The position numbers and the translations under genes were made by a program. From a virus (taxonomy: Duplodnaviria > Caudoviricetes), in the IMG/VR virus record IMGVR_UViG_3300034069_002177, positions 64,001-128,000 of that record: a stretch of 64,000 bases of DNA; one strand, 5' to 3'. The notes beneath the pieces are model-generated. The model did no database searches and was not told the origin of the DNA. It worked only from the letters and a program-made list of their open reading frames with translations. Of the stretch, positions 9,501-57,857 are shown in pieces (the stretch's first letter is position 1; every line of letters begins with the position of its first letter).

Positions 9501-9577
<77 letters not shown>

Positions 9578-9701: not shown

Positions 9702-9774
9702 GGCTGTATAGCTCAGGGGTGAGAGCACTTCGCTGATAACGAAGGGGTCGGTGGTTCGATTCCACCTACAGCCA
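9702..9774 (+). tRNA. trnI: tRNA-Ile(GAT)
   Basis: Cloverleaf; loop CT-GAT-AA. Confidence 0.96.
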
Positions 9775-9973
9775 CTCGGAACACAACAACTCGCATACCT
9801 GCCGGACCAATCATCTGAGCAGCGCGGGGCGGAATGTTCGTCTCGAAAGAGAAATCGGCGGTATCTAGCGGTCCTTGGTTGCAAGGGTGCCGCAAGATGG
9901 ATGAGTACCGAGCGTTAACCTCATCAGATGATACGAAGCGAGATTGATTACCAAGCTTCTAAGTCGTCAACAT

Positions 9974-10046
9974 GCCCCTTTAGCTCAGTTGGTAGAGCGC
10001 TACGTTTACACCGTAGATGTCATCGGTTCGAGCCCGGTAGGGGGCA
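9974..10046 (+). tRNA. trnV: tRNA-Val(TAC)
   Basis: Cloverleaf; loop TT-TAC-AC. Confidence 0.95.
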
Positions 10047-10252
10047 CTGCACCAAGCGGTTATGCATGACTGACTATGGTGCTTGACACATACCAAGTGT
10101 CTAGGCGGGGTTCCTGAATGTGACCTAGTTGTCGGTTGGCTCCAAACCGTCCCTTATGGACTACGAGGTTACCGCGTGTCCCGTTTAGCGTTCTTGCGTG
10201 AAGAGCGTTGTGGGTGTCCGTCTCAGTGGTACGAGACGTAATCCCACAGAAT

Positions 10253-10325
10253 GCGCCCGTAGCTCAGGGGATAGAGCGGTTGACTACGGATCAACAGGTC
10301 GGGGGTTCGATTCCCTTCGGGCGCA
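10253..10325 (+). tRNA. trnR: tRNA-Arg(ACG)
   Basis: Cloverleaf; loop CT-ACG-GA. Confidence 0.96.
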
Positions 10326-10340
10326 CGCAACACAAAGATT

Positions 10341-10581
10341 TTCAACCAACTGGACTGTCGCGGGCGAAAGCTTGAGGAAAGTCCGGGCACTTGACCAACT
10401 ACCGTGTGGTAGATGAACTCCGCGTTCATCGCTCAAGAACCACTAAGCCCAACCTAAAAAGCAGGGTGCAGGATGTGTGCAACGCCAAACAGTCTGAGGG
10501 AGTTGGTCTCCTGTGAAAGACGGGTAGGCGGCTGAGACAGATGACAGTCTAAAACAGAACCCGGCTTACGGGTTGGTTGAA
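10341..10581 (+). ncRNA. rnpB: compact RNase P RNA
   Basis: GAGGAAAGTCC (10374-84) and ACAGAACCCGGCTTA (10554-68); P1 10341-51/10571-81; P2 GGACTGTC/GACAGTCT; P7-like GACCAACT/AGTTGGTC. Confidence 0.9.
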
Positions 10582-10586
10582 TTAAT

Positions 10587-10670
10587 GCCCGCATGGCGAA
10601 ATTGGCAGCCGCGTTGCGTTCAGAGCGCAATGACCGAATGGTCGTCCGAGTTCAAGTCTCGGTGTGGGCA
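10587..10670 (+). tRNA. trnL: tRNA-Leu(CAG)
   Basis: Long variable arm; loop TT-CAG-AG. Confidence 0.94.
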
Positions 10671-10761
10671 CTGCTGACCTAGGTCAGCCACTAATGAAAG
10701 GCTACACGAAATGATGGACTCCACCTAACCCTCCTTTGTTGACTATACAAAGGAGGTGAAA

Positions 10762-10941
10762 ATGAGAAAATTCACATACACAGACACCCGCGACTGGAAG
10801 GTCGCTGATGTCGATGGCAAGGCTATGACCTTGCTCGTGACGGATGCAAAGGGCAACAAAAGGAACGTCGAAAAGTTCGACGGCTTCCGCTCTGCATCCA
10901 GAGCAGCCAAGAAGCTTGGTGGTTTCGCCGTTAGGGCGTAA
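10762..10941 (+). CDS. small basic hypothetical protein (59 aa)
   Basis: Strong RBS AAGGAGG upstream of ATG; phage-like codon usage. Confidence 0.7.
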   Translation: MRKFTYTDTRDWKVADVDGKAMTLLVTDAKGNKRNVEKFDGFRSASRAAKKLGGFAVRA

Positions 10942-11057
10942 CTAGGCTTTCAGATTTCTCCGGTGTGCGGAGAATGAAATACCCAGTCGTGGACCTTGCA
11001 GAAACGAAGCGGCTGGCGAGTGGTAGGCATGTACTGCACTGTCCTACCACTCAAAAT

Positions 11058-11130
11058 GGCTCTGTAGCTCAGTTGGTAGAGCGTTCGACTGAAAATCGAA
11101 AGGTCACCGGATCGATGCCGGTCGGAGCCA
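11058..11130 (+). tRNA. trnF: tRNA-Phe(GAA)
   Basis: Loop CT-GAA-AA; T loop ATCGATG. Confidence 0.93.
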
Positions 11131-11280
11131 CGACCGATTCCATACAGTTTTTGCGGACTGCGATGGATCTCACTACTAGCCACGGGTACTTCGTTGCGTG
11201 CTGAGTAGGACATGAGGATTGGTGCCTCATCAATGAATAGACTGGTTGGGATACCGCAAAATTTCCAACTGGTCGCACTA

Positions 11281-11354
11281 GCCTCGCTAGCTCAATATGG
11301 CAGAGCATCAGACTTTTAATCTGCGGGTTCTCGGTTCAAGTCCGAGGCGGGGCA
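11281..11354 (+). tRNA. trnK: tRNA-Lys(TTT)
   Basis: Cloverleaf; loop CT-TTT-AA. Confidence 0.93.
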
Positions 11355-11379
11355 CACATCATTGGGATTCCAATGACTA

Positions 11380-11464
11380 GATAGTAGTGATGTAATTGGC
11401 AGCACGTCCGCCTTGTGTACAGAGGGCTAACGGAAGGAATCGACTCGAAATCGTTCTACTATCG
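11380..11464 (+). ncRNA. His-like degenerate tRNA with expanded anticodon arm
   Basis: 8-bp acceptor GATAGTAG/CTACTATC, D-arm motif TGTAATTGGCAGCAC, TCCG/CGGA enclosing 20 nt that include TT-GTG-TA; degenerate T loop CTCGAAA. Confidence 0.5.
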
Positions 11465-11590
11465 AAAACCGTGGCGTATGGTTTATTACGCAGTCACCGA
11501 AACATGGCGTAGGCGAAGCGCCCTAGAAGTTGGATTAGGTGAAAGGTGTCGGAAGCTCCCTCAGCAGGAGCCTAGTCTTGGTCACCATAT

Positions 11591-11663
11591 TCCTCTATAG
11601 CTCAATTGGCAGAGCAGTCGGCTGTTAACCGACAGGTTCGTGGTTCGAATCCACGTGGGGGAG
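11591..11663 (+). tRNA. trnN: tRNA-Asn(GTT)
   Basis: Cloverleaf; loop CT-GTT-AA. Confidence 0.95.
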
Positions 11664-11786
11664 CAATGCGAGTATCCGGTACGCAAGGTTGCAACGCTCG
11701 CAGAAGTCCTAACTTTCCCACAGCAGTCCGTGAGGGAAGTCAAGCAACGGAAATGAGAAATCATAGGGTTGGCGGTTAGGCAACAT

Positions 11787-11858
11787 GGCGATGTGGTGTG
11801 AGTGGTTAGCCGTTTCTCTGCAAAAGAAAATATGCCGGTTCGATTCCGGTCGTCGCCT
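11787..11858 (+). tRNA. trnC: tRNA-Cys(GCA)
   Basis: Loop CT-GCA-AA; U73. Confidence 0.9.
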
Positions 11859-11869
11859 CAATGCTCGAT

Positions 11870-11899
11870 TTGACTTTCACCGGTCAGTCGTTCTACCAT
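11870..11899 (+). promoter_or_regulatory. sigma70-type promoter (may also drive the downstream repeat array)
   Basis: TTGACT-18 nt-TACCAT. Confidence 0.65.
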
Positions 11900-11914
11900 G
11901 TTCTATATGAACAT

Positions 11915-11989
11915 GGGGTGATAGCCAAGCTGGTTAAGGCACCGAACTCATAATTCGACGATTCGTGGGTTCAAGTCCCACTCACCCCA
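11915..11989 (+). tRNA. tRNA-Ile2/Met(CAT)
   Basis: Cloverleaf; loop CT-CAT-AA; isotype (lysidine Ile2 vs elongator Met) not resolvable by eye. Confidence 0.88.
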
Positions 11990-12163
11990 CTCAACTTCAT
12001 CACTACTCCGATGAGGTAGGGTTCCGATAAGCACCATGTGTGCTAAGATTGGGGCTCGCAGAACCACCCGGTTCTGTTGTGTGCTGGATTCCGTGTTGTG
12101 CGCACGACGTGGAATTCATCGGTCGAAGTCCGACGTATGTAACCGACGAAACAGGTGCTACAT

Positions 12164-12236
12164 GCCCGTATAGCTCAGTTGGTAGAGCGCCAGCATGACT
12201 CGCTGGATGTCGGGGGTTCAAATCCCTCTACGAGCA
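12164..12236 (+). tRNA. trnV: tRNA-Val(GAC)
   Basis: CCAGC-AT-GAC-TC-GCTGG; atypical T37; one acceptor mismatch. Confidence 0.85.
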
Positions 12237-12252
12237 CTGCTTCTTGACACGA

Positions 12253-12519
12253 AGCTATTCCTGAGAAATCGGGATGTTCCGCCCTGACCTTCGCATTGTG
12301 AAGTTCCTTACCTCGGTTTGGATGAACCACTGCGACCCTTGGAGCCACCAAGTCCCTACTCCGGTAGGGATGAACCACCACGACCTTCGCGTCCACAATA
12401 TCCTCGCCTCGGCTTGGATGATCCTCCCCAACCTTCAGATTCATCACTTCCTCGCTCCGGCTTGGATGAACCGCGATGACCTCTACCGTGGGTACACTTT
12501 CGTTTCGACGGGAATTATG
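12253..12519 (+). CRISPR. delocalised degenerate type I-E-like array: 6 repeats, five 20-nt spacers
   Basis: GGATG at exact 48-nt period (12272, 12320, 12368, 12416, 12464); 28-nt units with 7-bp-stem/4-nt-loop geometry, e.g. CAAG-TCCCTAC-TCCG-GTAGGGA-TGAACC; degenerate terminal repeat ~12493-12519. Confidence 0.8.
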
Positions 12520-12528
12520 GAAATGGAC

Positions 12529-12558
12529 TTGACAGAGTATGGTCTGGTACTGTAAAGT
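12529..12558 (+). promoter_or_regulatory. sigma70-type promoter
   Basis: TTGACA-18 nt-TAAAGT. Confidence 0.7.
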
Positions 12559-12626
12559 GGTAAACGTCTTGTGAGAGCAAGACTTCGGAACTTCACAACA
12601 CAATAGCGTTTAGTAAGAAAGATTTT

Positions 12627-12700
12627 GCTTCTGTAGCTCAGATGGTTAGAGCGCCGCCCTGTCACGGCGGAGGTCGCCGGTTCAAGTCCGGTCAGGGGCG
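12627..12700 (+). tRNA. trnD: tRNA-Asp(GTC)
   Basis: Cloverleaf; loop CT-GTC-AC; core identical to 1719-1792. Confidence 0.95.
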
Positions 12701-12947
12701 CTATCAAAGGAACCGCGTTAGCGGGTTGCCTGCGATACAGCAAGACACCAGATACCGTCAAATATCTGGTACCCACACTTCTACCGTCGATGCGGTAGGT
12801 TCCGTTGACACGGAAGGATCGTTTCAAGTGAAGGTCTTGTACTTTGTTGGGCGTCGTCCTCCGGGACTGGCGCAGCCGATGGGTTCGGTTCCGTGACTCA
12901 TCTCCCTTTTATGCCGAGTGGTTGCAAACGCGAGGAAACGGAAATAT

Positions 12948-13020
12948 GGGGTCTTAACTCAGTTGGTAGAGTGCCTGCTTTGCAAGCAGGATGTCAGGAG
13001 TTCGATTCTCCTAGACTCCA
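12948..13020 (+). tRNA. trnA: tRNA-Ala(TGC)
   Basis: G3-U70; loop TT-TGC-AA. Confidence 0.95.
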
Positions 13021-13160
13021 CGTTGGTAGACGAAAGTCTTACCTTGGTAGATGAACACCTACCCTGCTCCAGTAATGGACAGGCTCCGAAGCAGAGATTC
13101 GGAATCCTACGTAAGACTGCTAGCGTCGCACATAGGAATATCGAGTCAAGTGTTCAACAT

Positions 13161-13231
13161 GGATTTTAGCTCAGTTGGTAGAGCACCTGCTTTCAAGCAG
13201 AATTTCGGGAGTTCGATTCCCCCATAATCCG
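13161..13231 (+). pseudogene. degenerate Ala-derived tRNA with 6-nt anticodon loop (TTTCAA)
   Basis: D arm and CTGC/GCAG stem resemble Ala(TGC) at 12948 but G35 is missing; mismatches in T and acceptor stems. Confidence 0.55.
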
Positions 13232-13375
13232 CGAACAAGAAGCTGTTGAAGTTTAGGGATTAACTACCCGAGTGCAGATACGTGTGTGTACTGTTTATAC
13301 CCTAGTCGCCGGTTAGGATGATGACTGCTTGGTAGTTCTTGCAGTGATTGTTCATGAATACGAGCTAGGCTCTGT

Positions 13376-13446
13376 GGGGATGTAGCTTAATGGTAAAGCC
13401 TTAGTCTTCCAAACTAATGACGCGGGTTCGATTCCCGTCATCCCCT
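13376..13446 (+). tRNA. trnG: tRNA-Gly(TCC)
   Basis: Loop CT-TCC-AA; U73. Confidence 0.94.
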
Positions 13447-13709
13447 CTGTGGCATCATCGAAATTACGGTGAAGGCTTCCTAACGCCTCTGTGTGAATCG
13501 CAGTGAAAAGTTAGGACTCTGCCGGAGTAGAGTGGTTGCATAGACTAAACCGGAAACAGGGCTTGCGGACCTGGGCGTGATACGGGATTCGGCTATCACA
13601 GACCTCTTTATGAGGCATATGGATGAAAGTTCCACAGTGAAGCATTTAGGAAATTCGAAGAATCCAAACGCGTTGGATGAAATCGTATAGACTAAGTGCA
13701 TCACGACAT

Positions 13710-13781
13710 GCGGATGTGGCGCAGTGGTAGCGCATAACCTTGCCAAGGTTAGGGTCGCGAGTTCGAATCTCGTCATCCGCT
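13710..13781 (+). tRNA. trnG: tRNA-Gly(GCC)
   Basis: Loop TT-GCC-AA; U73. Confidence 0.96.
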
Positions 13782-13949
13782 CGTAAGCAGCATTTGACTG
13801 CTAGGGCTTCTAGGATATCCATTGGGTATCCTTTTAGTCGAGATCCCGTCCAACCGCAAGGTTGGCGTAAGCGGTCGTTCAAATACACCTTCTCTAACTC
13901 CGGTTGGCATCGAAAGATGCGTTCTTGGGAAGCGTGTTAAACCGGATAT

Positions 13950-14021
13950 GCGGTCATAGCCTACGGGTATGGCAACTTGGCTTCCAGCCAAGAGTTGATG
14001 GTTCAAGTCCATCTGACCGCT
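13950..14021 (+). tRNA. trnG: tRNA-Gly(TCC)
   Basis: Loop CT-TCC-AG; U73. Confidence 0.9.
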
Positions 14022-14344
14022 CAAAGCCATCCAGAAGGCGGTATAAGCGAGTAACTAACGCCGATACCATCCGATGCTGGCTCATCCTTAGAATGGAACG
14101 TGGCGCTTGTGAGACTGTAGTGGTCAAGCACGTGTTACCGGAAATTCTCAGGCTCTGATTCTCGACTAGTAATCGGGAAGCGGGTTTGCTTCACCCGCCC
14201 TAGCTGCGACGAGTAGTGGCGAAGGAATAAGCACCTCAGCAATGCGAGGCTAAGCGTTGCCACTATTGGGTCACTGTTTACTAGACAAACCCTTTAGGAT
14301 TCGGTAAGCTAGAGACTAAGAAGCTTCCTAGCTTCCGAATACAT

Positions 14345-14439
14345 GGGACTGTAGCTCAAAAGTCACCCTCAAGGTGGCGGGTAGAGCAAGGAGCGGCGCG
14401 CGTTCCAGAAGGTTATCGGTTCGATCCCGATCAGTTCCA
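14345..14439 (+). ncRNA. Ala-like tRNA with hairpin inserted in D loop (loop GG-CGC-GC)
   Basis: Acceptor GGGACTG/CAGTTCC with G3-U70 and A73; D stem GCTC/GAGC enclosing GTCACC-CTCAA-GGTGGC; T arm ATCGG-TTCGATC-CCGAT. Confidence 0.65.
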
Positions 14440-14481
14440 CGGTCTTCTAGTCGTCCTTCGGGATGGCTAGAACTCCACCAT

Positions 14482-14556
14482 GCGAAAGTAACTCAGCGGT
14501 AGAGTTCCTCGTTGCCAACGAGGTTGTCGCGGGTTCGATCCCCGTCTTTCGCTCCA
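14482..14556 (+). tRNA. trnG: tRNA-Gly(GCC)
   Basis: Loop TT-GCC-AA; CCA encoded. Confidence 0.95.
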
Positions 14557-14641
14557 AGGTAGGAATTTGTCAAACGCAGCCCGGTGCCCTGACGACATCG
14601 ATGCTGTAGGGGTTCCTGCCTGTAACTTATTTTCATGATTT

Positions 14642-14714
14642 GCCCTCGTAGCTCAGGGGATAGAGCAGGAGCCTTCTAATCTCTTGGTCGCAGGTTCGAA
14701 TCCTGCCGAGGGCA
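14642..14714 (+). tRNA. trnR: tRNA-Arg(TCT)
   Basis: Loop CT-TCT-AA. Confidence 0.93.
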
Positions 14715-14815
14715 CAACGGTCGTCAATGGGCGTACACGACCGGGTTTACTTGGCGTCCAAAACAGGCGGCTTCCTATGAGTGTATGGAGGCTGATCCTC
14801 GACTCGACACTCACT

Positions 14816-14888
14816 GCGTTTGTAGCTCAGTGGATAGAGCAGTTGACTACGGATCAACAGGTCGGGGGTTCGAATCCCTCCAGGCGCA
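14816..14888 (+). tRNA. trnR: tRNA-Arg(ACG)
   Basis: Loop CT-ACG-GA. Confidence 0.95.
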
Positions 14889-14947
14889 CAGATTTGCATG
14901 GTAGCTGTCTAGCTGCTATGCTTTTCACGAGGGTAAAACCTTGAAAT

Positions 14948-15020
14948 GCCGACTTGGCGCAATTGGTAGCGCAACTGTCTTGTAAACAGTAGGTTGCGGG
15001 TTCAAGTCCCGCAGTTGGCT
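14948..15020 (+). tRNA. trnT: tRNA-Thr(TGT)
   Basis: Loop CT-TGT-AA. Confidence 0.95.
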
Positions 15021-15036
15021 CTCCGAAGGGATAATT

Positions 15037-15399
15037 ATGTACGACTTGTCATTCTCTGAATTTGACGACGAACCTCGCGCCCTCCCCATCGATGTAGCGC
15101 GTAATCGCATCGAGCCGTTGTTCCCGAATTTGAAGTTCACAAGTGCTGGCGGGTCAGTTCCCTTCCAAGCCGAGGGCTACTACATGGGTATCGCGGACTT
15201 TTACTTTCGGTTCCGACATGACTCGGCTAGTCTCACGATTGGTCGTCCTGGTCGGCACACCCCCGAAAATGATTTCGTCATCTACAAAGATGACGTGACT
15301 GGCGAGGATTACGCGGGAACGCTCGACGATGATGAATTTGTAGCGTTGTTCACGGAACTCATGGAGCGTATGCTTGCAGAGAAACCACTTCCTCGCTAA
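15037..15399 (+). CDS. hypothetical protein (120 aa, acidic)
   Basis: RBS GAAGGGA, protein-like composition, fills gap between tRNAs. Confidence 0.8.
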   Translation: MYDLSFSEFDDEPRALPIDVARNRIEPLFPNLKFTSAGGSVPFQAEGYYMGIADFYFRFRHDSASLTIGRPGRHTPENDFVIYKDDVTGEDYAGTLDDDEFVALFTELMERMLAEKPLPR

Positions 15400-15448
15400 G
15401 AAATAGACTGGTGATGGTCAGGTCAGAAATGAAGCAGCCATCATCTTT

Positions 15449-15521
15449 GCCCTTGTAGTTCAGCGGATAGAGCGTCATCTTCCGAAGGTGAATGTCGCTG
15501 GTTCGAATCCAGTCAAGGGCA
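15449..15521 (+). tRNA. trnR: tRNA-Arg(CCG)
   Basis: Loop TT-CCG-AA. Confidence 0.92.
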
Positions 15522-15757
15522 CAAGCAACACGAAGTGGCGATGGCAGGGTAAGTTGCAACGACTGTCACGCTCCCTATGCATGGGGTTGTGTTGTGAGGT
15601 GAAGGGAAATCACCAAATTCGTACTGGTCGTTCAAGTCAGGACTGCTTGTTAAAAGTGAGATGGGGGTATCGAATCCTTCCTAGTACGCCAAACTTCTTG
15701 TAACACGACCGGGTTCAGCCCAGTCGTGTGATATAGCCAGACACCGATGGTGTTTAT

Positions 15758-15829
15758 GCCACTTTAGCTCAGGGGTAGAGCAAACGCTTCGTAAGCGTTA
15801 GGTCGTCAGTTCAAATCTGACAAGTGGCT
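15758..15829 (+). tRNA. trnT: tRNA-Thr(CGT)
   Basis: Loop TT-CGT-AA. Confidence 0.95.
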
Positions 15830-16089
15830 CGGAATCGGGAACAAGGTCTCTCGGTAACGGACAGGTACAAAACGAGAACCCAGTGCACATGGACTCGCAC
15901 AAAATCCTGTTACCGTTTCGGTGTCCGTCTTCTTACGTTTTCGGGCACCGAACATTCTTCGAGGTTCAGCACTCGACGTATTTCATCTCAGGATACGGTA
16001 CGATACCAAAGGCTGGTCGGAGGTACACCGAAGGTAATCTGTTAGTGCAGATGATCAACCATGCACAGCGCGGAGTGATTCGCGTTTGT

Positions 16090-16161
<72 letters not shown>

Positions 16162-16197
16162 CGTAAAGACTGCTACGGTAGTTATTCACGAAAATAT

Positions 16198-16273
16198 GGG
16201 TTCTTAGCTCAGTTGGTAGAGCATCACGCTGGCAGCGTGAGGGTCAGGGGTTCGAATCCCCTAGGATCCACCA
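16198..16273 (+). tRNA. trnA: tRNA-Ala(GGC)
   Basis: G3-U70; loop CT-GGC-AG; CCA encoded. Confidence 0.95.
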
Positions 16274-16302
16274 TATAGACACCTTGACGAAACGGACCAA
16301 AG

Positions 16303-16776
16303 TTGACCGAGCTAGTAATCGCTCCAATGAATGTCGAAGATATTCAGTCCGTTATCGACCATGTAACCAATGTATCCCTAGCTTCGTCGCATCTCGACCA
16401 CCCCAATATCGGTGCATGGCTTGAAGGTGAATACAATCCTGCTGATGTACTCGCAAAGCTTGATTCGAGCATCTGTCTCATTGTGAGAGATAACGAGCAC
16501 ATTGTCGGTACCGGATTCATCGATACGACAACTGGCTACATTTCGGGTGTCTATGTCTCCAATAAGGGACACGGTACTGGTCGTTTGATTGTCGATAGGT
16601 TGCTTGAAGAAGCAGCAGCAGAGGCTGGTACGAAACACTTCACTGCGAGTGTTCATCCTGACTCGAAAGCCATGCAGCACATTCTTTCAACGTCTGGTTT
16701 CACGGCAACGCATGTGGACCCTCACGTTGTTTACTATGTTGGTACCGACTTCATGATTTGGGAAAAGTCGGTATAG
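16303..16776 (+). CDS. GNAT family N-acetyltransferase
   Basis: beta4/alpha3 acetyl-CoA motif VYVSNKGHGTGRLIVDRLL; C-terminal AMQHILSTSGF. Confidence 0.8.
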   Translation: MTELVIAPMNVEDIQSVIDHVTNVSLASSHLDHPNIGAWLEGEYNPADVLAKLDSSICLIVRDNEHIVGTGFIDTTTGYISGVYVSNKGHGTGRLIVDRLLEEAAAEAGTKHFTASVHPDSKAMQHILSTSGFTATHVDPHVVYYVGTDFMIWEKSV

Positions 16777-16782
16777 CAACAC

Positions 16783-16854
16783 GCCTCGTTAGTTCAGCGG
16801 AAGAATGCCTCTTTCCTAAAGAGTTGGTCGCTGGTTCGAATCCAGTACGGGGCA
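16783..16854 (+). tRNA. trnR: tRNA-Arg(CCT)
   Basis: Loop TT-CCT-AA. Confidence 0.9.
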
Positions 16855-17209
16855 CTGGGAAAACACCAACAGATTCGATTAGTCATCGAGGAACTAAGTT
16901 GGTGAGGGTGGTCGTTCACCGTGAAAAGAACGATGTCTGGTGATGTAGACGAGGTACCTAGCCTGAATCACAAGCGGATGAGACGGTTAGCTGGTTGGTG
17001 GACGCTCGATAAGGGTGGTTTCCGTACTCGCTGATTTGTGGGGTATAGATTCCGAATACTGCGACCCATCGTGGAAGACAACAAGCGGCTTGACTGGTCG
17101 CCCAAGTGACAAGTGTGGTGGAAATCCACTAGTAATCAAGAGCGTGGTACAGGGATCATAACCCTGCCTCCGTGAAGGTTTTAAGCCGGAGCGGCTTGGT
17201 TGCGATTTA

Positions 17210-17283
17210 CGGAGTATGGGAAAATTTGGCAATCCGCGCCGTTCGGGACGGCGAGAATGAGGGTTCAAATCCCTCTACTCCGA
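17210..17283 (+). tRNA. trnP: tRNA-Pro(CGG)
   Basis: C1-G72; loop TT-CGG-GA. Confidence 0.92.
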
Positions 17284-17377
17284 CATGGGGCGAGTGAGTC
17301 CGCGAAACCTTGGTGTTGACAACACAAGTAGACGTGGGCGCGGTCGCGTGTTTTCTCGACACCCTGTATCGTCAAAT

Positions 17378-17634
17378 GCAGTAGGGTTGAGGAACAGAAA
17401 TGCGGGCAGCAATGTGCCGCTACCGTAGGTCGAGACTACGGCGCTCCACCAAACTTTTGACACAGATTGGTCAACCCCGGCGCTTTAGGGGCTGAGAACG
17501 GCTCACAGAGCCAGTGGTCGTGGGCGAAGCGTGAAGGCATCCTGGGTAAGTCCTTCCGGCAAGCTACCAACGCGAATTCTGAGGTTCATGTCTTGGAAGT
17601 GCTGGGGACGTGGGTTCGATTCCCACCGACTGCA
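17378..17634 (+). ncRNA. large structured RNA closed by a tRNA/tmRNA-like acceptor and T arm
   Basis: GCAGTAG pairs (6/7) with CGACTGC-A after GGGGAC-GTGGG-TTCGATT-CCCAC; internal hairpins such as CCGTAG/CTACGG. Confidence 0.4.
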
Positions 17635-17660
17635 CAACGTCAGCAATGCGCTGACCGTAT

Positions 17661-17734
17661 GGTGTTCGTAGCTCAATTGGCAGAGCGGCAGGTCGTGAAC
17701 CTGTTCGTTGCGGGTTCAAGTCCCGTCGTCCACC
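17661..17734 (+). tRNA. atypical tRNA-His-like (loop TC-GTG-AA)
   Basis: G-1/C73, canonical D and T arms, C33, two acceptor mismatches. Confidence 0.65.
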
Positions 17735-17766
17735 TGAAACGATACCCTTATCGTCAAAAGGAATAA

Positions 17767-17840
17767 CAGGATGTAGCGCAGTTTGGTAGCGCGCCAGTTC
17801 GGGGAACTGGAGGTCGCGGGTTCAAACCCCGCCATCCTGA
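17767..17840 (+). tRNA. trnP: tRNA-Pro(GGG), C33 variant
   Basis: C1-G72; CCAGT-TC-GGG-GA-ACTGG. Confidence 0.85.
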
Positions 17841-18016
17841 CACTTATCGACATCCGTTAACGAATGACACCGTACTGTTTTATGGTATAAACACCCCAAT
17901 AGAGGGGTGGTTGTTCGATAGCGGGTACATTCCACATAAAAATGGCTTGACAGATGAGACAATTTCATACACGGCAAAATGGTTGCTGTATCTACATCCG
18001 AAAGCTCATCCCGACC

Positions 18017-50276: not shown

Positions 50277-53210
50277 ATGATGGTATCCACACACGAGAAG
50301 CACGCTCTCCGAGTTGCGCGTAAGGCAGAAGACCTGTCTTACGCCGCGCGTTCGGTTTGGGGTAAGACCCAGCGTGGTAAAGATACGACCTTCTGGATGC
50401 CTCTTTACCGGCACTTGGCTGATACTGCACTCGTATCTGCGCGCCTTTACGATGAATACCTGCCGGATGCCGCCAAGCGAGATATTGCTCTTGCTCTGAA
50501 CAGCGAAGATGATGCGCGGACACTAGCTATTTTCCTTGCTGGAATTCACGACCTCGGTAAGTCATCGCCTGTTTTCCTTGCATCAGAAGATGATTACGTC
50601 AATGAACTCAATGATGCATTCATGGGCAAAAATGGTCTTCACGTGCCACGAGGTCTTGATAGATCTCTAATTCGACATGAAGTAATCTCAGCTATTCTCA
50701 TCAAGCGCTTCCTTCTCGAAGAAGGTGTCTCTGAGGCTGTAGCTGATTCTTGCGCAATCGTAGTCGGTAGTCATCACGGCAACCCCCTCTCTCACGAGCT
50801 TCTTGCGTCTTGTATCGGTCGAGAAGACATCATCGGAACTTCTGACCCAGCCTGGCTCGCCGTTCAGCGCGAAATCTTTGACTATGCCGCTGTCATCTCC
50901 GGGGCTAACAAGAGCTTCATTAATTGGCGAGACATGGAGATGTCACGTTCAGCAGAAACCATTCTTATGGGTTTCGTTGTAGCTGCTGACTGGGGTGCCT
51001 CTCAGGGTTTTGGCTGCAATATGTCTTTGAAATCCAAGACCCTCGACATCGACGTAAAGAAAGACACCAGCCGAGCGGTGGTTGCGCTCAACGCACTGCC
51101 TATTCCATCCAAGTGGACACCCTCTGTACCGCCCAACGCAGGGAGTGAATTCTTCCATACGAGATTTGGCTTCCCACCACGACCTGTACAGAAGGCTGCG
51201 CTTGATGCTGTTCGTCCAATGACAGACAGTGGGCTAATAATCATCGAAGCCCCAATGGGTGAAGGCAAAACGGAAGCCGCGCTCGCTGTTGCTGAGGTAA
51301 TGGCTCAGCAAACTGGTGCGTCAGGAGTATTTGTTGCACTACCCACCATTGCTACCTCAGACGCCATATTCAGCCGCGCCCGAAGCTGGGTTAGCAACCT
51401 TCCCGGAAGCCGCAGTGGCATGTCGATGTATCTTTCGCATTCCCGTTCCGGTCTCAACGGTAACTTCGCTGAACTACTAGATGCGGCTCGTGAAGAAGGC
51501 GTCGATGGTGGACACGTCAATAGGTGGCTGTCACAGGGAACCAAGCTGGGTCCGCTATCGAACTTCGTAGTCGGGACTATCGACCAAGTGCTTGTTTCGG
51601 CATTGGCATCAAGGCATGTCACGTTGCGACATCTAGCGCTCGCCAACAAGGTTGTAATTCTCGATGAGGTGCATGCATATGATGCGTATATGAACGTATT
51701 CCTGGCACGAGCGTTGCAATGGTTGGGTTATTACGGCGTTCCCGTCGTGCTTCTTTCGGCTACTTTGCCGACCGATATCCGCAAGGATCTGGTGGTGGCA
51801 TATAACGACGGCTTGAATTCGCGTCGGACGATGAGTGCACCTGTCAAGGAACTTCCTCTTACTTTGGACATCACTAAGATTGCAAAGTCCAAGCAGTCAC
51901 GTAATGACATTGGCGGTATTGACCTGAAGCCGTTGACAACTATTCGGTACCCTTTGATTTCCGTTCTGGACAAGAAAGGTGTGCATGTTCATCACACCGA
52001 AGGTGCATCGAGCAAGAATCCGCTCGCTCTGAATGTGCTTCCTGGCGGTGGTAACGACGAGACGCTCGCGAAGCGTCTTTCTGACCGACTCATCCACGGC
52101 GGGTGTATCGGAATCTTCCGTAATACGGTCGCTCGTTCTCAGCAGACCTATGACGCCATGAAGGCATACTTTGCGGAGCAAGAAATTCCTGTCGAGGTTC
52201 TTCTACTCCACTCGCGATTCATCGGGCTTGATCGCGCCGTCAAAGAACAGCGGCTCAACAACTATCTCGGCAAGGAATTTGCCAAACGACCTAAGCGGCT
52301 CATTGTAGTCGGAACACAGGTGATGGAACAGTCGCTTGATATCGATTTCGATGAAAGCATTTCGGACATTGCTCCTATTGACTCGCTGTTGCAGCGCGCG
52401 GGACGAACCCATCGCCACAACATCCCCAATCGTCCGCGCGTATTCACGGAACCAAGACTTTACATCGCTGGAGTCTCTAACTGGGATGAAGAAGAAGGTG
52501 GGGTGCCTGGTGTCAACCATGCCGCAGAAGCGATTTATCCACTCAAAACACTGTACCGAGCCGTTCACGCCCTGCGCCCTTACGCCCTAGATGACGAGAA
52601 GCGACTACAACTCCCTCGTGATATTTCTGCCTTGGTACGTCGTGGTTATGGCGACCGTGTTCGTCCGCCTGAAAGCTGGAAGGACGAATGGAAGGTAGCC
52701 GAGAAAGAATGGCGCGATCTCATCAAGGATAAACGGGATAAGGCTGACAGTAACTATCTCCTTCCCGCGCCTGAGACCGACATCCTTGACTGGCAAAGCC
52801 ATATCAGCAAGGGTGTTGGAGATAGCGAATCCAAAGCACTCGCGTCTGTCCGAGACATCGATGATGAGGAAGAGATCATCTTGCTCAAGTCGAATGGAAA
52901 GGGTCAGATCCAAACTCTCGATGGAGAGTTTGCTGGTGCTGGTCTCGCAGTTGATTTCGAGAGTAAACCTAATCACGAAACTGCACTTGCTATTGCGGCA
53001 AGCATGTTGCGTCTCCGGGCAAAAGAATTTGCTGCCCTTGACGCTGAGTCGGTTCTATTCGACACCGATCTGATTGGTGAATGGAAAGCGATTCCGATTC
53101 TACGTCACAAGAAAATTCTGGTGCTGCGAGAGAACATGGTTATCAACGGCAAGGGTTTTGCTGTGCAGTACAGCCATGACCGGGGTTTGGAAATGAAGGT
53201 GGTTAAGTGA
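50277..53210 (+). CDS. cas3: CRISPR-associated helicase/nuclease Cas3
   Basis: HD domain (HLADT, IHDLGK, HEVIS, SHHG, AADW); APMGEGKTE, DEVH, SAT, QRAGR. Confidence 0.96.
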   Translation: MMVSTHEKHALRVARKAEDLSYAARSVWGKTQRGKDTTFWMPLYRHLADTALVSARLYDEYLPDAAKRDIALALNSEDDARTLAIFLAGIHDLGKSSPVFLASEDDYVNELNDAFMGKNGLHVPRGLDRSLIRHEVISAILIKRFLLEEGVSEAVADSCAIVVGSHHGNPLSHELLASCIGREDIIGTSDPAWLAVQREIFDYAAVISGANKSFINWRDMEMSRSAETILMGFVVAADWGASQGFGCNMSLKSKTLDIDVKKDTSRAVVALNALPIPSKWTPSVPPNAGSEFFHTRFGFPPRPVQKAALDAVRPMTDSGLIIIEAPMGEGKTEAALAVAEVMAQQTGASGVFVALPTIATSDAIFSRARSWVSNLPGSRSGMSMYLSHSRSGLNGNFAELLDAAREEGVDGGHVNRWLSQGTKLGPLSNFVVGTIDQVLVSALASRHVTLRHLALANKVVILDEVHAYDAYMNVFLARALQWLGYYGVPVVLLSATLPTDIRKDLVVAYNDGLNSRRTMSAPVKELPLTLDITKIAKSKQSRNDIGGIDLKPLTTIRYPLISVLDKKGVHVHHTEGASSKNPLALNVLPGGGNDETLAKRLSDRLIHGGCIGIFRNTVARSQQTYDAMKAYFAEQEIPVEVLLLHSRFIGLDRAVKEQRLNNYLGKEFAKRPKRLIVVGTQVMEQSLDIDFDESISDIAPIDSLLQRAGRTHRHNIPNRPRVFTEPRLYIAGVSNWDEEEGGVPGVNHAAEAIYPLKTLYRAVHALRPYALDDEKRLQLPRDISALVRRGYGDRVRPPESWKDEWKVAEKEWRDLIKDKRDKADSNYLLPAPETDILDWQSHISKGVGDSESKALASVRDIDDEEEIILLKSNGKGQIQTLDGEFAGAGLAVDFESKPNHETALAIAASMLRLRAKEFAALDAESVLFDTDLIGEWKAIPILRHKKILVLRENMVINGKGFAVQYSHDRGLEMKVVK

Positions 53211-55261
53211 CATCGTTCAACCTTGTTGATGAGCCTTGGATTCCAGTCAATCTGATTAGCGGTGAGGGTGTTGACGTTTCACTAAGAGATCTCTTTGCCC
53301 GCTCTCGTGATATTCGCTCTATCGAGTGTGACAACCCGATGCAGACCGCAGCGGTGGTGAGACTGGTACTTGCTGTAATGTACCGGGCTCTTACGCCTTT
53401 GTTTCTGGCGCAGAAGAATCACGCTAAAAACGCCGATGTCACTCTCTGGAAAATGCTGTGGGACGACGAGACGGGCACACTTGCCAACACAATCGACAGC
53501 TATCTCGAAACATGGAAGAATCGCTTCGATCTATTCGATGCCAAGCGCCCTTTCTACCAAATCGCTGACTTGGAATACAGCAGCGCCGATGAAAGCAATC
53601 GAGGCGAAATCAAGCGCAGCCTTGGAAAGATGATGCCTGACGGTGACATCATCAGCGTTTTCAAGAACAGCGATTTTGCTGCTAAGGTGAGTTATGCAGA
53701 AGCGGCGCGTATTCTCATTGGCTACCATTCGTGGTCAACTCTCGCTCCACTCAGTCCTGTGGTGGGTATTTACCCGGATGACGAGCTAGCTATTTCACGA
53801 CTGTATCCCAAAGGTCATCGCGGTTGGTGTTCTTCAATCGGGATCACCCTCATGGTAGGTCGCAATTTCTATGAGACGGCGATGCTCAACTTCGTCCCCA
53901 GCCAACTCAATTTCAAAGATGTACCTTTCTGGGAAGAGGCTAAGGCTCGAAAAGTGCCGATCCTCTATGAAATGCCAGATGGTCTCGCCAAGCCCATCCT
54001 CAAATCTCGCAATGCCAAACCTGTTGGTCAGGTACAGCTTTTCGTTTGGTTCGCTAAGAGCGTTCGACTAATTCCCGAAAACGGTAAAGTCGTTGCGGCT
54101 ATTTCATCCGAGCACGATTCACTGAGTTCCCGAAGCTCCAATGTACACATGGCTCGACACCATGAAACTCAAACTGCTTGGCGCGAAACGGAGAAAGGTG
54201 AGATGGCGGCGTATCACTTTGTCAGCGACTCGGTTTGGCAGAACATTCCCGCAGTGCTTCCCAAGACTCGTGATGGATTCCTTGCCCCACTCAACGTTAC
54301 ATGGTCGGCAAAGGTCGTCAACTTACTCGGTATTCGGCTACCCGCACGAATTCGCATTATCGGAGCGAGTACCGATGATCGTGCGCAAACATTTCGAGGC
54401 GTTATTGACAAGAGCGTTACCATCTCGTCTTTGTCCAAACTGGATAATCCCGTTGTCACAGCCCGTATTGCAGATACTGCCGAAACGTTGACGAAAATGG
54501 TTAGGACTTACTACTACGGCTTTGCACGCGATGTCCTCTCTACCAAGTACGGGGAGGTGTCCAGCATCCTTTTAGATGCCCTTATGTCGCCAGCTAACGT
54601 TGTCTTGGACAAGTCCTTCGTCTCTTTGTTCCGGCTCGCTACAGACCCGAATGAGCCGAACGTTGATACTGTTATCGATGGCTTGGTCGAACACTTGATC
54701 GAGCTATCTCAGGAAGTAGCCAATGATTCAAACGGAACTGACTTGCTGGGAAAATGGCACCACATCAACGGAGAAAACAAGCTTCTTTCGATTGCTGCCT
54801 CACGCGCAAGATTGTTACGGGGAATTCAGCCCGAACGCAAGAAATCGTTTGGAAAACTGACCGAAGATGCTGGGTTTGTAAGGTGGGCGATCAATAAGAA
54901 CCTCGCCAGCAAAAAGCTGAGCCCCGAAGAGTCCGACTTGGATGAGTTCGTGTTGGGGTTCTGGTCTGGGCGGAAAAATCTACCCAGCGGTGCTCCCGTC
55001 CATATCGTCGAGAAGACTCCTTATGACTCTTTTTCGGTATTGCGCAAGAGTGATGGCGCAGCCTTCGATGAGAGAGTTTCTGACCTTTTCGATGCCAAAG
55101 ATGATGCAACCATCAAGGAGTCCTTACGTCGTCTGGCGGGTGTGGCTAATTCGCAGGGTTATCCGATGGATTTCGGAACTCTCGCGGCTATTGGGAAGTC
55201 GATTCACAATCCCGAACTACGTCTAGAAATCGCGCAAGATATAGCAGACCGCCGTAAGTGA
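53207..55261 (+). CDS. cas8e: type I-E Cas8e (Cse1/CasA) with C-terminal Cas11 (Cse2)-like extension
   Basis: FNLVDEPWIPV...SLRDLF, RFDLFDAKRPFYQ; final ~140 aa ending ERVSDLFDAKDD..IKESLRRLAG....QGYPMDFGTLA; no separate cse2 ORF. Confidence 0.88.
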   Translation: MTSFNLVDEPWIPVNLISGEGVDVSLRDLFARSRDIRSIECDNPMQTAAVVRLVLAVMYRALTPLFLAQKNHAKNADVTLWKMLWDDETGTLANTIDSYLETWKNRFDLFDAKRPFYQIADLEYSSADESNRGEIKRSLGKMMPDGDIISVFKNSDFAAKVSYAEAARILIGYHSWSTLAPLSPVVGIYPDDELAISRLYPKGHRGWCSSIGITLMVGRNFYETAMLNFVPSQLNFKDVPFWEEAKARKVPILYEMPDGLAKPILKSRNAKPVGQVQLFVWFAKSVRLIPENGKVVAAISSEHDSLSSRSSNVHMARHHETQTAWRETEKGEMAAYHFVSDSVWQNIPAVLPKTRDGFLAPLNVTWSAKVVNLLGIRLPARIRIIGASTDDRAQTFRGVIDKSVTISSLSKLDNPVVTARIADTAETLTKMVRTYYYGFARDVLSTKYGEVSSILLDALMSPANVVLDKSFVSLFRLATDPNEPNVDTVIDGLVEHLIELSQEVANDSNGTDLLGKWHHINGENKLLSIAASRARLLRGIQPERKKSFGKLTEDAGFVRWAINKNLASKKLSPEESDLDEFVLGFWSGRKNLPSGAPVHIVEKTPYDSFSVLRKSDGAAFDERVSDLFDAKDDATIKESLRRLAGVANSQGYPMDFGTLAAIGKSIHNPELRLEIAQDIADRRK

Positions 55262-55310
55262 TTTGACACGACGACTACACTCAGATACCCTTCCGTCAGG
55301 AGAACCATCA

Positions 55311-56381
55311 ATGACAACTTTCATCAACATCCACGCCATTCAAAGCCTTCCTCCATCGTCGCTTAACCGTGATGACAGCGGAGTTCCTAAGAAGGCACTG
55401 TTCGGCGGTACAGAACGCGTTCGGGTTTCTTCTCAGTCATGGAAGTTCGCTATTCGAAAGTTCTTTTCTGATAACTACGACTCCAGCTATATTGGGTGTC
55501 GGACGACTCAGCTTCCTGTGGAGTTCGAAAAGGCTCTACGGTCAATCCGACCCGAAGCCGATGATGCACTGGTGAAAAAGCTGACGAAGACAGTTTTGGG
55601 AGTAGCCGAGAAAACCGAAGAAGACGGGGCGGGATTCGAGCCTGGTTCGGTTGCGGGTTCTAAGATGATTGTCTTCTATAGCCCCGCGCAGTTAGAGGCG
55701 CTCGTTACCATCGCCATCGAGGTGGTTGACGGAAAACGAAAAGGTGTCACTGTTTCTGAGATCAAAGAAGCATTGGTTGGCAAGAACACTGTCGATATCG
55801 CCCTGTTTGGGAGAATGATGACGGCTCAGGCGGAACTAAGTGTTGATGCTGCGGCAAATGTTGCTCACGTCATCGGAGTTGATAAATATGAGTCGCAACG
55901 TGACTCCTTTGTGGGTTTAGACGACAACCTCGGTAAGGCAAAAATCCTGGGCTCCATTGACTTCGTATCTTCGGTCGTCTACCGATACGCATGTATCGAT
56001 GCTGATTCACTCACCAAGAACCTTGATGGTGACAAGACGTTCTCGGCGGAGGCGGCTGGTGCATTTATCAATGCATTCATTCGGTCCATGCCATCGGGTA
56101 AGCAGTCTAGCTTCGCGGCTCATACCCTCCCCAGTTTCGTTCTCGTAACACTTTCAGATAATCAGCCACTCTCGCTTGCTAGTGCCTTCACTCGGGTAAT
56201 TAGCGGCGACGACATTGAAAACGACGCTATTGACGCCCTGGTGGAGAATGCGATGATGATCTCCGATAACTATGGGGAACCGATTGCTGCATTCACGTTG
56301 CATGATGGAACGCATGATATTCCTTTTGCGAAGAAGGTTTCGCTGCCCGACCTAGTTGACTCTGTGAAGAAAGCTTACTAA
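55311..56381 (+). CDS. cas7: type I-E Cas7 (CasC/Cse4)
   Basis: INIHAIQSLPPSSLNRDDSGVPK...RVRVSSQSWK, DIALFGRM, DAAANVAH, SSVVYRY, PSGKQSSFAAH. Confidence 0.96.
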   Translation: MTTFINIHAIQSLPPSSLNRDDSGVPKKALFGGTERVRVSSQSWKFAIRKFFSDNYDSSYIGCRTTQLPVEFEKALRSIRPEADDALVKKLTKTVLGVAEKTEEDGAGFEPGSVAGSKMIVFYSPAQLEALVTIAIEVVDGKRKGVTVSEIKEALVGKNTVDIALFGRMMTAQAELSVDAAANVAHVIGVDKYESQRDSFVGLDDNLGKAKILGSIDFVSSVVYRYACIDADSLTKNLDGDKTFSAEAAGAFINAFIRSMPSGKQSSFAAHTLPSFVLVTLSDNQPLSLASAFTRVISGDDIENDAIDALVENAMMISDNYGEPIAAFTLHDGTHDIPFAKKVSLPDLVDSVKKAY

Positions 56382-56384
56382 GTC

Positions 56385-57128
56385 ATGTCATCCGTCGTTC
56401 TTGTCCTTTCTGGTGTACTCCAATCATGGGGTACTACCACTATCGGTCATGCCCGAGCAACAAACAGCTACCCAACCAAGAGCGCCATCGTTGGTCTTGT
56501 TGCAAATGCGCTCGGTAGAGAACGCACTGATACCATTTCGGATTTGGCGAAACTTTCGTTCGGAGTTCGTATCGATATGGCGGGCGTAGTGCAACGTGAT
56601 TATCACACGGTCAGCATTATCACTCAGCCGACTAAAGGTGACAGAGTGAATCGCATCACTGAACGCTATTACTTAGCCGATGCTGTTTTCGTGGTCGTGC
56701 TTAGTGGTACTGATAATGAGCTAATCAAGCAAATCGGAGAAGCATTACAGCGCCCCGCACGACCTTTGTTCCTGGGACGCAAGTCATGCCCTCCTATCAG
56801 ACCAACTTTTCATAGCTACTCAGATCTTGGCGTTCAAGAAACACTGGCTGCTGTTGCTTGGCAGGCTGATATTGCTACGCAGGAATCATTCATCGGTTCT
56901 CATCTCGAATTAGATGTTTACCGAGACCCTACCGATGACATCGAGGGTTTTGACTCTGATGTCATCAATGACCAGCCGAAGAGTTTTGATCCTCATGCTC
57001 GTAGGTATGCATCACGAGGCGTTTACCGCGATGTCGTAAAGATCGAGTTTCCTATTCAGCAGTCAAGAACGACTCCTATTTCTGGTTTCTTTGCGCTGGC
57101 ACAAAAGGTTGCGGAGGCAGCATCATGA
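56385..57128 (+). CDS. cas5: type I-E Cas5 (CasD)
   Basis: LSGVLQSWG...PTKSAIVGLVANALG, RDYHTV, RYYLADAVF, LFLGRKSCPP. Confidence 0.96.
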   Translation: MSSVVLVLSGVLQSWGTTTIGHARATNSYPTKSAIVGLVANALGRERTDTISDLAKLSFGVRIDMAGVVQRDYHTVSIITQPTKGDRVNRITERYYLADAVFVVVLSGTDNELIKQIGEALQRPARPLFLGRKSCPPIRPTFHSYSDLGVQETLAAVAWQADIATQESFIGSHLELDVYRDPTDDIEGFDSDVINDQPKSFDPHARRYASRGVYRDVVKIEFPIQQSRTTPISGFFALAQKVAEAAS

Positions 57129-57760
57129 CGTATCTCACCGTCGTTCCTCTGAATGCTTACAGGGCGTCCACTAAGAAGATGCTGTCTTCTCGTCAAGTTG
57201 CTCACGCAACAGTGATGCAGTCATTCGCGCCCAATCAAAATCTCAATGACGCCGATTCAAGAGTTCTTTGGTCGCTTGATGTTTCGGGTCGAGACGTGCA
57301 ACTGACCATTCTGAGTCCAGAGCGGGCTTCTGTAGAGCACATTGTGGAGACCTGCGGATGGACAGCAGCGGGAGATTCTAGCTTCCAGCAAGTTGAATAC
57401 ACCCCGTTGGTTTCGAGTGTTGCAACAGGAAGTCAGTATTCATTTTCTGTCACAGTCAATCCTGTTATTTCGGTCACAGGAAGTTCCAAACGCATAGCGG
57501 TTTCCGAGAAAGACGTAGCTGCATGGGTTGCTTCTAAATTCGGGCGGGAAGGTATGAGAATTATCACCTCAGAAGTAATCTCGTATCGTATTGAATCCTT
57601 CAAACGAGGAAACGGCAAGGTCACTCTGGCGTTGGCTACCGTCACTGGGACATTCCGGGTTGAGGATGCATCAGCCACGCAAAAAGCTCTCGTTGCTGGG
57701 ATTGGTCGTGCCAAAGGATATGGCTGTGGTCTCATCTCACTCAACGAGCAATTAGTCTGA
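57125..57760 (+). CDS. cas6e: type I-E Cas6e (CasE/Cse3)
   Basis: HATVMQSF, RVLW, VNPV, C-terminal GIGRAKGYGCGLISL. Confidence 0.95.
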   Translation: MTYLTVVPLNAYRASTKKMLSSRQVAHATVMQSFAPNQNLNDADSRVLWSLDVSGRDVQLTILSPERASVEHIVETCGWTAAGDSSFQQVEYTPLVSSVATGSQYSFSVTVNPVISVTGSSKRIAVSEKDVAAWVASKFGREGMRIITSEVISYRIESFKRGNGKVTLALATVTGTFRVEDASATQKALVAGIGRAKGYGCGLISLNEQLV

Positions 57761-57765
57761 TTGGG

Positions 57766-57838
57766 GTGCTCCCAGTGATGGGATGTTCCTCCGTGATACC
57801 GACGTGACAAGAATTCCCCGGCACGCCGGGGTTGCACT
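57766..57838 (+). CRISPR. single-spacer mini-array with atypical repeats and a 21-nt spacer
   Basis: GTGC-TCCCA-GTGA-TGGGA-TGTTCC (24 nt), spacer 57790-57810, GAAT-TCCCCGG-CACG-CCGGGGT-TGCACT (28 nt), 5 nt after cas6e stop. Confidence 0.8.
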
Positions 57839-57857
57839 CCAATCAGATTCACTCAGT

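Follow-up and report, generated by a model that had tools for sequence, protein, structure and literature searches.

A virus of the Caudoviricetes, IMG/VR record IMGVR_UViG_3300034069_002177, carries a type I-E CRISPR locus (50277-57838, with the cas operon at 50277-57760) whose guides are only 20 nucleotides (nt) long and match tRNA genes of actinobacteria. The record is a single contig of 202,737 base pairs (bp), treated here as a virus, and the window analyzed is a stretch of 64,000 nt corresponding to its bases 64001-128000; all coordinates follow window numbering (Table 1). This huge phage is probably lytic, and its host is probably actinobacterial. The CRISPR system, which appears to be a type I-E effector with fixed guides and no adaptation, would seem to serve an attack on the host, through either its chromosome or its supply of tRNAs, and not immunity. 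It is moderately probable that a hard-wired mini-Cascade with four Cas7 subunits brings Cas3 to host tRNA loci, in which case any effect on the host would come from degradation by Cas3 rather than from silencing by Cascade alone.

Each of the five cas genes of the operon scores above the curated cut-off of at least one Pfam or NCBIfam model, and the genes are tightly packed, with junctions of -4, +1, +3 and -4 nt (cas3 overlaps cas8e by 4 nt). The signatures of Cas3 (HD nuclease and SF2 helicase), Cse1/Cas8e, Cas7e, Cas5e and Cas6e place the system in type I-E, while the cas1e-cas2e adaptation module of that type is absent. The original prediction, made from the letters of this DNA, had described a cas3-cas8e-cas7-cas5-cas6e operon without cas1 or cas2 in the window, and this description extends to the whole 202,737-bp record, in which Cas1 has no match and Cas2 has only a sub-threshold match inside an open reading frame (ORF) of 440 amino acids (aa), with none that is credible. 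Seven syntenic loci retrieved through Cas8e homologues all encode cas3-cas8e-cas7, together with cas5-cas6e where the contig extends far enough, and in none of these seven relatives is cas1, cas2 or cse2 found beside the operon. Two of the seven come from large contigs, one 229 kb and the other 495 kb long. In INPHARED and IMG/VR, no close relatives were found by either the Cas7 protein or the handle-plus-guide pattern.

Cas3 can be aligned to the solved type I-E Cas3 structures 4q2c and 4qqw. Its HD and helicase motifs had been predicted to be intact, and all are present, namely HD, GxGKT (as GEGKT), DEVH, SAT, QSxD (as QSLD) and QRxGR (as QRAGR), with every catalytic motif invariant in eight relatives. 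Across these relatives, Cas3 is 72-86% identical and far better kept than Cas8e, which is just 44-62% identical, and Cas3 is therefore under strong purifying selection.

The separate cse2/cas11 gene expected of a type I-E operon is missing, as cas8e and cas7 lie 1 nt apart and leave no room for it. Structural modeling indicates that Cas11 is nevertheless present, as the C-terminal domain of Cas8e; the five genes listed in the original prediction thus stand, and cas11, which that list omitted, is to be added to them in fused form. Residues ~1-548 of Cas8e correspond to Cse1 and residues 552-684 (54860-55261) to a Cse2/Cas11-like domain, and the close homologues of Cas8e are all 664-693 aa in length. 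In an AlphaFold (AF2) model of residues 400-684, with a predicted local distance difference test (pLDDT) score of 82, residues 403-548 match the four-helix bundle of Cse1 with Z scores of 11.7 (Thermobifida fusca Cse1), 11.1 and 11.0. Residues 552-684 match CasB/Cse2 of T. fusca, Thermus thermophilus and Meiothermus ruber (4h79, 2zca and 3wa8) with Z scores of 10.8, 8.5 and 8.2, and the best eight structural matches of the C-terminal model are Cse1 or Cse2 every time. Though these Z scores are modest for helical bundles, the specificity of the matches is concordant with the sequence, in which the sole Cse2 signal of the genome is a weak profile match (E 0.002) in the C-terminus of cas8e (55058-55192). 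No internal in-frame start with a ribosome-binding site, which would offer a route to free Cas11, is seen ahead of the Cas11 domain.

Immediately downstream of cas6e lies a single CRISPR RNA (crRNA) unit. What the original prediction called a one-spacer array is indeed one unit beside cas6e, though it consists of two unlike repeats around a 20-nt guide, here named Scas, instead of a 32-nt spacer. Six relatives extend past cas6e on the downstream side, and five of them have the unit, both stems of which change letters yet stay paired. In the first repeat, substitutions in the stem compensate one another, whereas GGGATGTTCC is the same in all five relatives, and GGGATGTTCC(T/G) plus the following ~19 nt is almost invariant among the relatives having the unit. 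The relative L006 (7992-8063) has the full cas operon, but a 70-nt gap without a crRNA unit follows its cas6e. On the model of Escherichia coli repeats, cleavage by Cas6e after the first stem is predicted to leave an 8-nt handle, AUGUUCCU, in comparison to AUAAACCG in E. coli; ATGTTCCT agrees with the E. coli handle at positions 1, 2, 6 and 7. In every array unit and in each of the five relatives, 24-25 nt separate the handle from the stem that follows (25 nt here), as opposed to 36-37 nt in E. coli type I-E. The guide is therefore 20 nt in length, exactly 12 nt, or two Cas7 steps, below canonical type I-E. Neither repeat is found again in the genome with up to 8 mismatches allowed. Around the unit, an outer helix of 10 bp starts within the cas6e stop codon and shows compensating changes in the relatives L001, L004 and L008 (in L008 in another register), and it may be a processing or folding element. 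The interval from cas6e to the unit contains no plus-strand terminator, and 3' of the unit lies a promoter-like element that is conserved.

A search with the handle revealed GGGATGTTCC one further time in the genome, at 12271, inside the tRNA bank of the phage, leading to a second array. Its handles are, in order, ATGTTCCG, ATGAACCA, ATGAACCA, ATGATCCT and ATGAACCG, and its repeats end in GGATG(A/T)(A/T)CC. The repeats are 28-29 nt long and share only their structure and the GGATGWWCC core, and the spacers are 20 nt long, unlike the ~29-nt identical repeats and ~32-nt spacers by which type I-E arrays are defined. None of the Rfam CRISPR-DR families matched. The relative L126 (from the same metagenome as L005 and with 21 tRNAs) has a related array in its own tRNA bank. 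When metagenomes were scanned for triple repeats spaced 48 nt apart, most of the matches were plain tandem repeats, the CRISPR-like cases being only L126, L142 and L180. The latter two are unrelated contigs, of metagenomic and viral origin, and their type I-E-like arrays (L142:880-1025 and L180:2026-2220, both on the minus strand; L180 is IMGVR_UViG_3300045988_157337) have a period of 48-49 nt, stems that are unlike between repeats and spacers of ~19-20 nt. Short-spacer type I-E arrays may thus be spread more widely among phages.

That the guides target tRNA genes had been proposed in the original prediction, and real matches flanked by an AAC protospacer adjacent motif (PAM) support it, although they are not visible within 50277-57838 alone and emerge only when the guide is considered together with the array at 12253-12515. 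Cascade flips out every sixth guide base, and such positions are referred to here as unread. In comparison with tRNA-Glu(TTC, that is UUC) genes, the differences of Scas are confined to positions 6, 12, 18 and 20, and the AAC found 5' of the protospacer is the complement of G53-T54-T55 in the tRNA T-loop. Of 251 Actinomycetota genomes sampled, 13 match the Scas pattern with N at positions 6 and 12, the control giving about one match, and seven of the matches are tRNA-Glu(TTC) genes (17-nt core without the PAM); a search with a 19-mer of Scas gives a few chance matches besides tRNA-Glu. Within a single actinobacterial family, that of Arsenicicoccus dermatophilus (genome G235, named by exact protein look-up), the tRNA-Glu target with AAC is present in 36 of 61 genomes, in one copy each.

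These first tRNA-Glu matches came from patterns with N at unread positions, a bias that plain-guide searches lift for the array guides S1 and S5 only. Searched as plain 20-mers with at most 3 mismatches anywhere in five of the actinobacterial genomes, where controls gave no matches, S1 matches only tRNA-Ala(CGC) of A. dermatophilus and of genome G170 (mismatches at 12 and 18), and S5 matches only tRNA-Val(CAC) of the Microbacterium genome G209 (mismatches at 12, 18 and 20), in each case with the PAM AAC. S4 is near-cognate to tRNA-Arg(ACG), with a true mismatch at 4, a wobble at 16 and differences at the unread positions 12, 18 and 20, and S2 is near-cognate to tRNA-Pro(GGG), where it wobbles at 10, is mismatched at 15 and differs at the same unread positions. 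A guide of the L126 array matches tRNA-Thr(CGT) of the Microbacterium genome with the same PAM. In a comparison of 12 guides with 81 phage tRNAs, scored only in the register next to the T-loop, the mean is 13.5 matches out of 20, compared with 9.7 +/- 0.35 for shuffled guides. In the A. dermatophilus genome, targets lie near 0.20, 0.49, 0.70 and 1.75 Mb, and this dispersal would suit degradation from multiple sites.

Certain candidates were set aside. An exact Scas scan of 185,579 species genomes gave 20 scattered chance matches, its pattern having fixed position 18 as Y, which made it blind to tRNA-Glu. S1 was rejected as a guide against tRNA-Val because the middle anticodon base falls at unread position 18, and it is assigned to tRNA-Ala(CGC). 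A recurrent non-tRNA match of the degenerate pattern (L038, L040) was dropped, having the wrong PAM and no Rfam family.

The positions of the mismatches are themselves regular. Positions 12 and 18 are mismatched in all five guides with identified targets, and in the cognate pairs no read position is mismatched. Mismatches at the unread, every-sixth bases fit guides that have long been kept by selection on target pairing without re-acquisition. Where the relatives vary at read positions of Scas (8 A to G; 10 C to T), the variants still wobble-pair (G-T or U-G) with tRNA-Glu. All six guides of this phage have A at position 6.

None of the six guides would act on the tRNAs of the phage itself, which have at least four read-position mismatches to each. 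As an example, the phage tRNA-Glu genes have a variable loop of 5 nt, compared with 4 nt in the target. All 64 tRNA genes and the gene for transfer-messenger RNA (tmRNA) lie in the first 18 kb of the window, with none in the rest of the genome.

Table 1. Features of the operon, the crRNA unit and the tRNA bank, in window numbering.
Feature	Positions	Strand	Evidence or description
cas3, 977 aa	50277..53210	+	HD nuclease, SF2 helicase, Cas3 C-terminal domain; Pfam Cas3_HD 1.2e-38, Cas3-like_C_2, Cas3_C
cas8e-cas11 fusion (modeled), 684 aa	53207..55261	+	Pfam Cse1 1.1e-60, residues 5-451
cas7e, 372 aa	55263..56381	+	Pfam Cas_CT1975 2e-86; TIGR01869 2.3e-72
cas5e, 247 aa	56385..57128	+	TIGR01868 5.9e-42
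cas6e, 211 aa	57125..57760	+	Pfam CRISPR_assoc 9.5e-39; TIGR01907 8.2e-16
Outer helix around crRNA unit, arms 57759-57768 / 57835-57844	57759..57844	+	RNAalifold on 5 relatives; single-sequence folds agree
Repeat 1	57770..57790	+	stem-loop TCCCA-GTGA-TGGGA (57770-57783), then 8-nt 5' handle ATGTTCCT (57783-57790)
Guide Scas, 20 nt	57791..57810	+	antisense to positions 33-52 of tRNA-Glu; almost unchanged across 5 relatives
Repeat 2	57811..57831	+	3' handle GAATT and CCCCGG-CACG-CCGGGG hairpin; no conserved handle after
tRNA bank	899..17841	+	64 tRNA genes and tmRNA; ARAGORN, Rfam
Second array in tRNA bank, five hairpin repeats and a degenerate sixth	12253..12515	+	period 48 nt (TRF)
Guides S1-S5, 20 nt each	starts 12282, 12330, 12378, 12426, 12474	+	array sequence

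In the mechanism proposed here, Cas6e would cut both the unit adjacent to cas6e and the array of 48-nt period into crRNAs of ~49 nt, each composed of handle (8 nt), guide (20 nt) and hairpin (21 nt). Such crRNAs would be bound by a shortened Cascade of Cas8e-Cas11, Cas5, Cas6e and four Cas7 subunits, as a guide 12 nt below the canonical length would fit four Cas7 instead of six, and one Cas11 tethered to Cas8e would stand in for two free Cse2 subunits. The guides would pair with the sense strand of the host tRNA gene from position 52 back to position 33, with the opposite strand offering the AAC PAM, which all tRNA genes carry because G53-T54-T55 is universally conserved. The bound complex, on an R-loop of 20 bp, would then recruit the HD-helicase Cas3, which would introduce nicks at several scattered tRNA loci and degrade the chromosome from there, and the target tRNA genes would be blocked in any case. 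The 64 tRNAs of the phage, which differ in the guide-matched stretch, would be spared and would replace the targeted host tRNAs. In E. coli, Cascades with crRNAs shorter by 12 nt assemble with fewer Cas7 subunits, and interference is retained when the spacer exceeds 20 nt (Kuznedelov et al., 2016; PMC5159557). A bolder form of this proposal, offered tentatively and with somewhat less than even confidence, is that a natural four-Cas7 mini-Cascade, with Cas11 tethered and its 20-nt guides fixed in the germline, uses the T-loop as a universal PAM, erases host tRNA genes and shreds the chromosome at many loci while the phage relies on its own complete, guide-resistant tRNA set, and that the mismatches at 12 and 18 together with the A at position 6 are a selected design of guides kept up without adaptation and not the product of drift.

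Several observations weigh against Cas3-mediated attack on host tRNA loci. A guide of 20 nt is at the lower edge of the interference-competent range in E. coli. In the genomes tested, S2 and S4 each retain a single true mismatch at a read position, and S3 has no tRNA match in ~360 actinobacterial genomes, the sets covered being 251 Actinomycetota, 61 genomes of the Arsenicicoccus family, 51 of the Microbacterium family and 21 of another order. No single genome searched matches all six guides. Positions 6 and 12 of Scas (57796 and 57802; position 18 is 57808) are A in all five relatives even though unpaired, a constancy that simple neutral drift at unread positions does not account for; when contigs of the source sample were aligned to a tRNA-Glu gene, no variant pairing with A at guide positions 6 and 12 was found. 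Among the RNA runs searched, none matches this DNA. Finally, IMG/VR classes the record as 'provirus', which fits poorly with a device that kills the host, even if the record has no recognizable integrase; the label may result from the tRNA bank having been taken for host DNA.

Silencing alone, in which the mini-Cascade blocks transcription of host tRNAs and the 20-bp R-loop is too short for Cas3, leaving Cas3 to serve another purpose or to act rarely, is rather unlikely. The target does sit within the transcribed tRNA gene, and according to one preprint, cr-like RNAs reportedly bring about repression without cleavage through partial pairing. Very short spacers in E. coli bind yet interfere poorly (Kuznedelov et al., 2016; PMC5159557). 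A Cascade that merely silences would, however, leave it unexplained that no protein of the operon is better conserved than Cas3, whose nuclease and helicase motifs are all invariant in the eight relatives and whose gene overlaps cas8e by 4 nt, and that the whole guide is paired beyond the seed. It is improbable that the guides instead serve competition among mobile elements, being aimed at tRNA genes, or at attachment sites derived from them, in integrative elements, satellites or competing phages. The 3' portion of a tRNA gene is found on many integrative elements, big tRNA banks occur in relatives of this phage, and the majority of viral mini-arrays aim at related viruses (PMC11656645). Nonetheless, between the guides of this phage and the tRNAs of L126, the one relative with a recovered bank, there are at least three read-position mismatches in both directions, and a BLAST search of the array against 50,697 phage records (INPHARED) gave chance matches in coding sequence only. 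The perfect read-position matches lie in chromosomal tRNA genes, which would be cut too.

The mini-array adjacent to cas6e might also be read as a cr-like RNA of the CreR/CreA type that represses a phage promoter or toxin gene for autoregulation or addiction, as its repeats are degenerate, non-identical and directly beside the cas genes, its guide is conserved, and AAG followed by a 9-nt seed match occurs at 19564-19575. This is very improbable: the degenerate mini-array of such systems is present, but no partial match to a promoter of the own locus accompanies it, and a scan of the whole genome (203 kb) gave no Scas match with 5 or fewer mismatches, none lying near the cas genes or neighboring promoters. 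The 9-nt match itself lies in a palindromic terminator-like hairpin (19562-19601, after a 527-aa ORF) and is probably due to chance, with ~0.02-0.1 expected per genome, whereas Scas pairs over its full length with tRNA-Glu, in a register and with a PAM common to five array guides. Least credible of all is action at the RNA level, with antisense guides, free or in Cascade, binding tRNA molecules. The guides are complementary to the sense strand of tRNA genes and hence to the tRNAs, but type I Cascade is a PAM-dependent binder of double-stranded DNA, the register puts the invariant T-loop exactly at the PAM in all guides, which points to DNA recognition, and a duplex of free RNAs would be made less stable by mismatches that recur at each sixth position. 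A role in integration, which the original prediction had proposed to check by looking for tns or integrase genes, is not supported: in the 202.7-kb record, no tyrosine integrase, rve transposase, TniQ, serine recombinase, resolvase or tns gene was found. Homing in the manner of CRISPR-associated transposons (CASTs) is likewise not supported, as rve, TniQ and tns were not found in the genome and Cas3 is intact, and the system does not belong among the CASTs.

In comparison to the canonical type I-E systems of E. coli, T. fusca and Streptococcus thermophilus, the phage system has homologous Cas3, Cse1, Cas7e, Cas5e and Cas6e proteins, a stem-loop with an 8-nt handle, and the Cse2 fold. It differs in the lack of cas1 and cas2, the apparent fusion of Cse2 to Cse1, guides of 20 nt rather than 32 nt, a predicted AAC PAM, repeats kept in structure and not in sequence, and fixed guides aimed at cellular tRNA genes. 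The E. coli Cascades with shortened spacers resemble it in having crRNAs 12 nt shorter and fewer Cas7 subunits while still acting on their targets (Kuznedelov et al., 2016; PMC5159557); those complexes are laboratory constructs with reduced affinity, whereas the one proposed here would be natural and conserved, with Cas11 changed to match. With a genome above 200 kb (202,737 bp) and no Cas1, Cas2 or Cas4, the phage falls within the adaptation-less class of huge-phage CRISPR systems. Parts of the report on such phages describe phage-borne systems without Cas1 and Cas2, some of whose spacers are directed against host transcription and translation genes, and huge phages that target host translation genes by CRISPR while carrying their own copy; in the passages of it considered here, no type I-E system is described that has Cas8e fused to Cas11, guides of 20 nt or targets in tRNA genes (Al-Shayeb et al., 2020; PMC7162821).

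Tn7-like CASTs (I-F3 and V-K) share delocalised atypical guides, diverged repeats and sites at tRNA genes with the phage system, but they lack Cas3 and carry TnsA/B/C and TniQ, while here Cas3 is intact and the guides lie within the tRNA body with the T-loop as the PAM. The type I-F system of Vibrio phage ICP1 is similar in being a phage-encoded type I system with a Cas3-type nuclease in offensive use, but it keeps its adaptation genes and normal spacers and targets the satellite PLE rather than host tRNA genes. In a full-text search of the literature, no phage type I-E system turned up in which Cas8e and Cas11 are fused, guides are naturally 20 nt long or tRNA genes are the targets. If the proposal is true, this would be the first natural shortened type I-E effector, and a compact Cascade could be of interest as a tool. 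It would also present CRISPR guides long maintained by selection alone, in which the positions at liberty to depart from the target read out the six-base periodicity of Cascade in evolutionary terms. Additionally, it would give a concrete reason for the near-complete tRNA sets of huge phages, as those of the host may be destroyed or silenced. The candidate hosts are culturable actinobacteria (for example Microbacterium, or relatives of Arsenicicoccus), making the idea directly testable.

The record is estimated by CheckV to be 96% complete, and its DNA comes from a plant metagenome, food metagenomes contributing only small shares. The polymerases closest to its DnaE-type polymerase are those of Streptomyces phages, at 37% identity. 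A few genes 3' of the cas operon, at 59480-60523, lies a gene for an ArdC-like anti-restriction protein or zincin metallopeptidase that is kept in relatives. The tmRNA gene of the phage, at 4525-4914, encodes the tag ANASRNDFALAA, whose style presumably resembles that of actinobacterial tmRNAs. Just 5' of this gene, at 4380-4470, a hairpin is followed by ATGAACCC, with a CCTC-GTAA-GAGG hairpin ~35 nt further on; these hairpins could be a further solo cr-like unit with a spacer of normal length, or could have arisen by chance.

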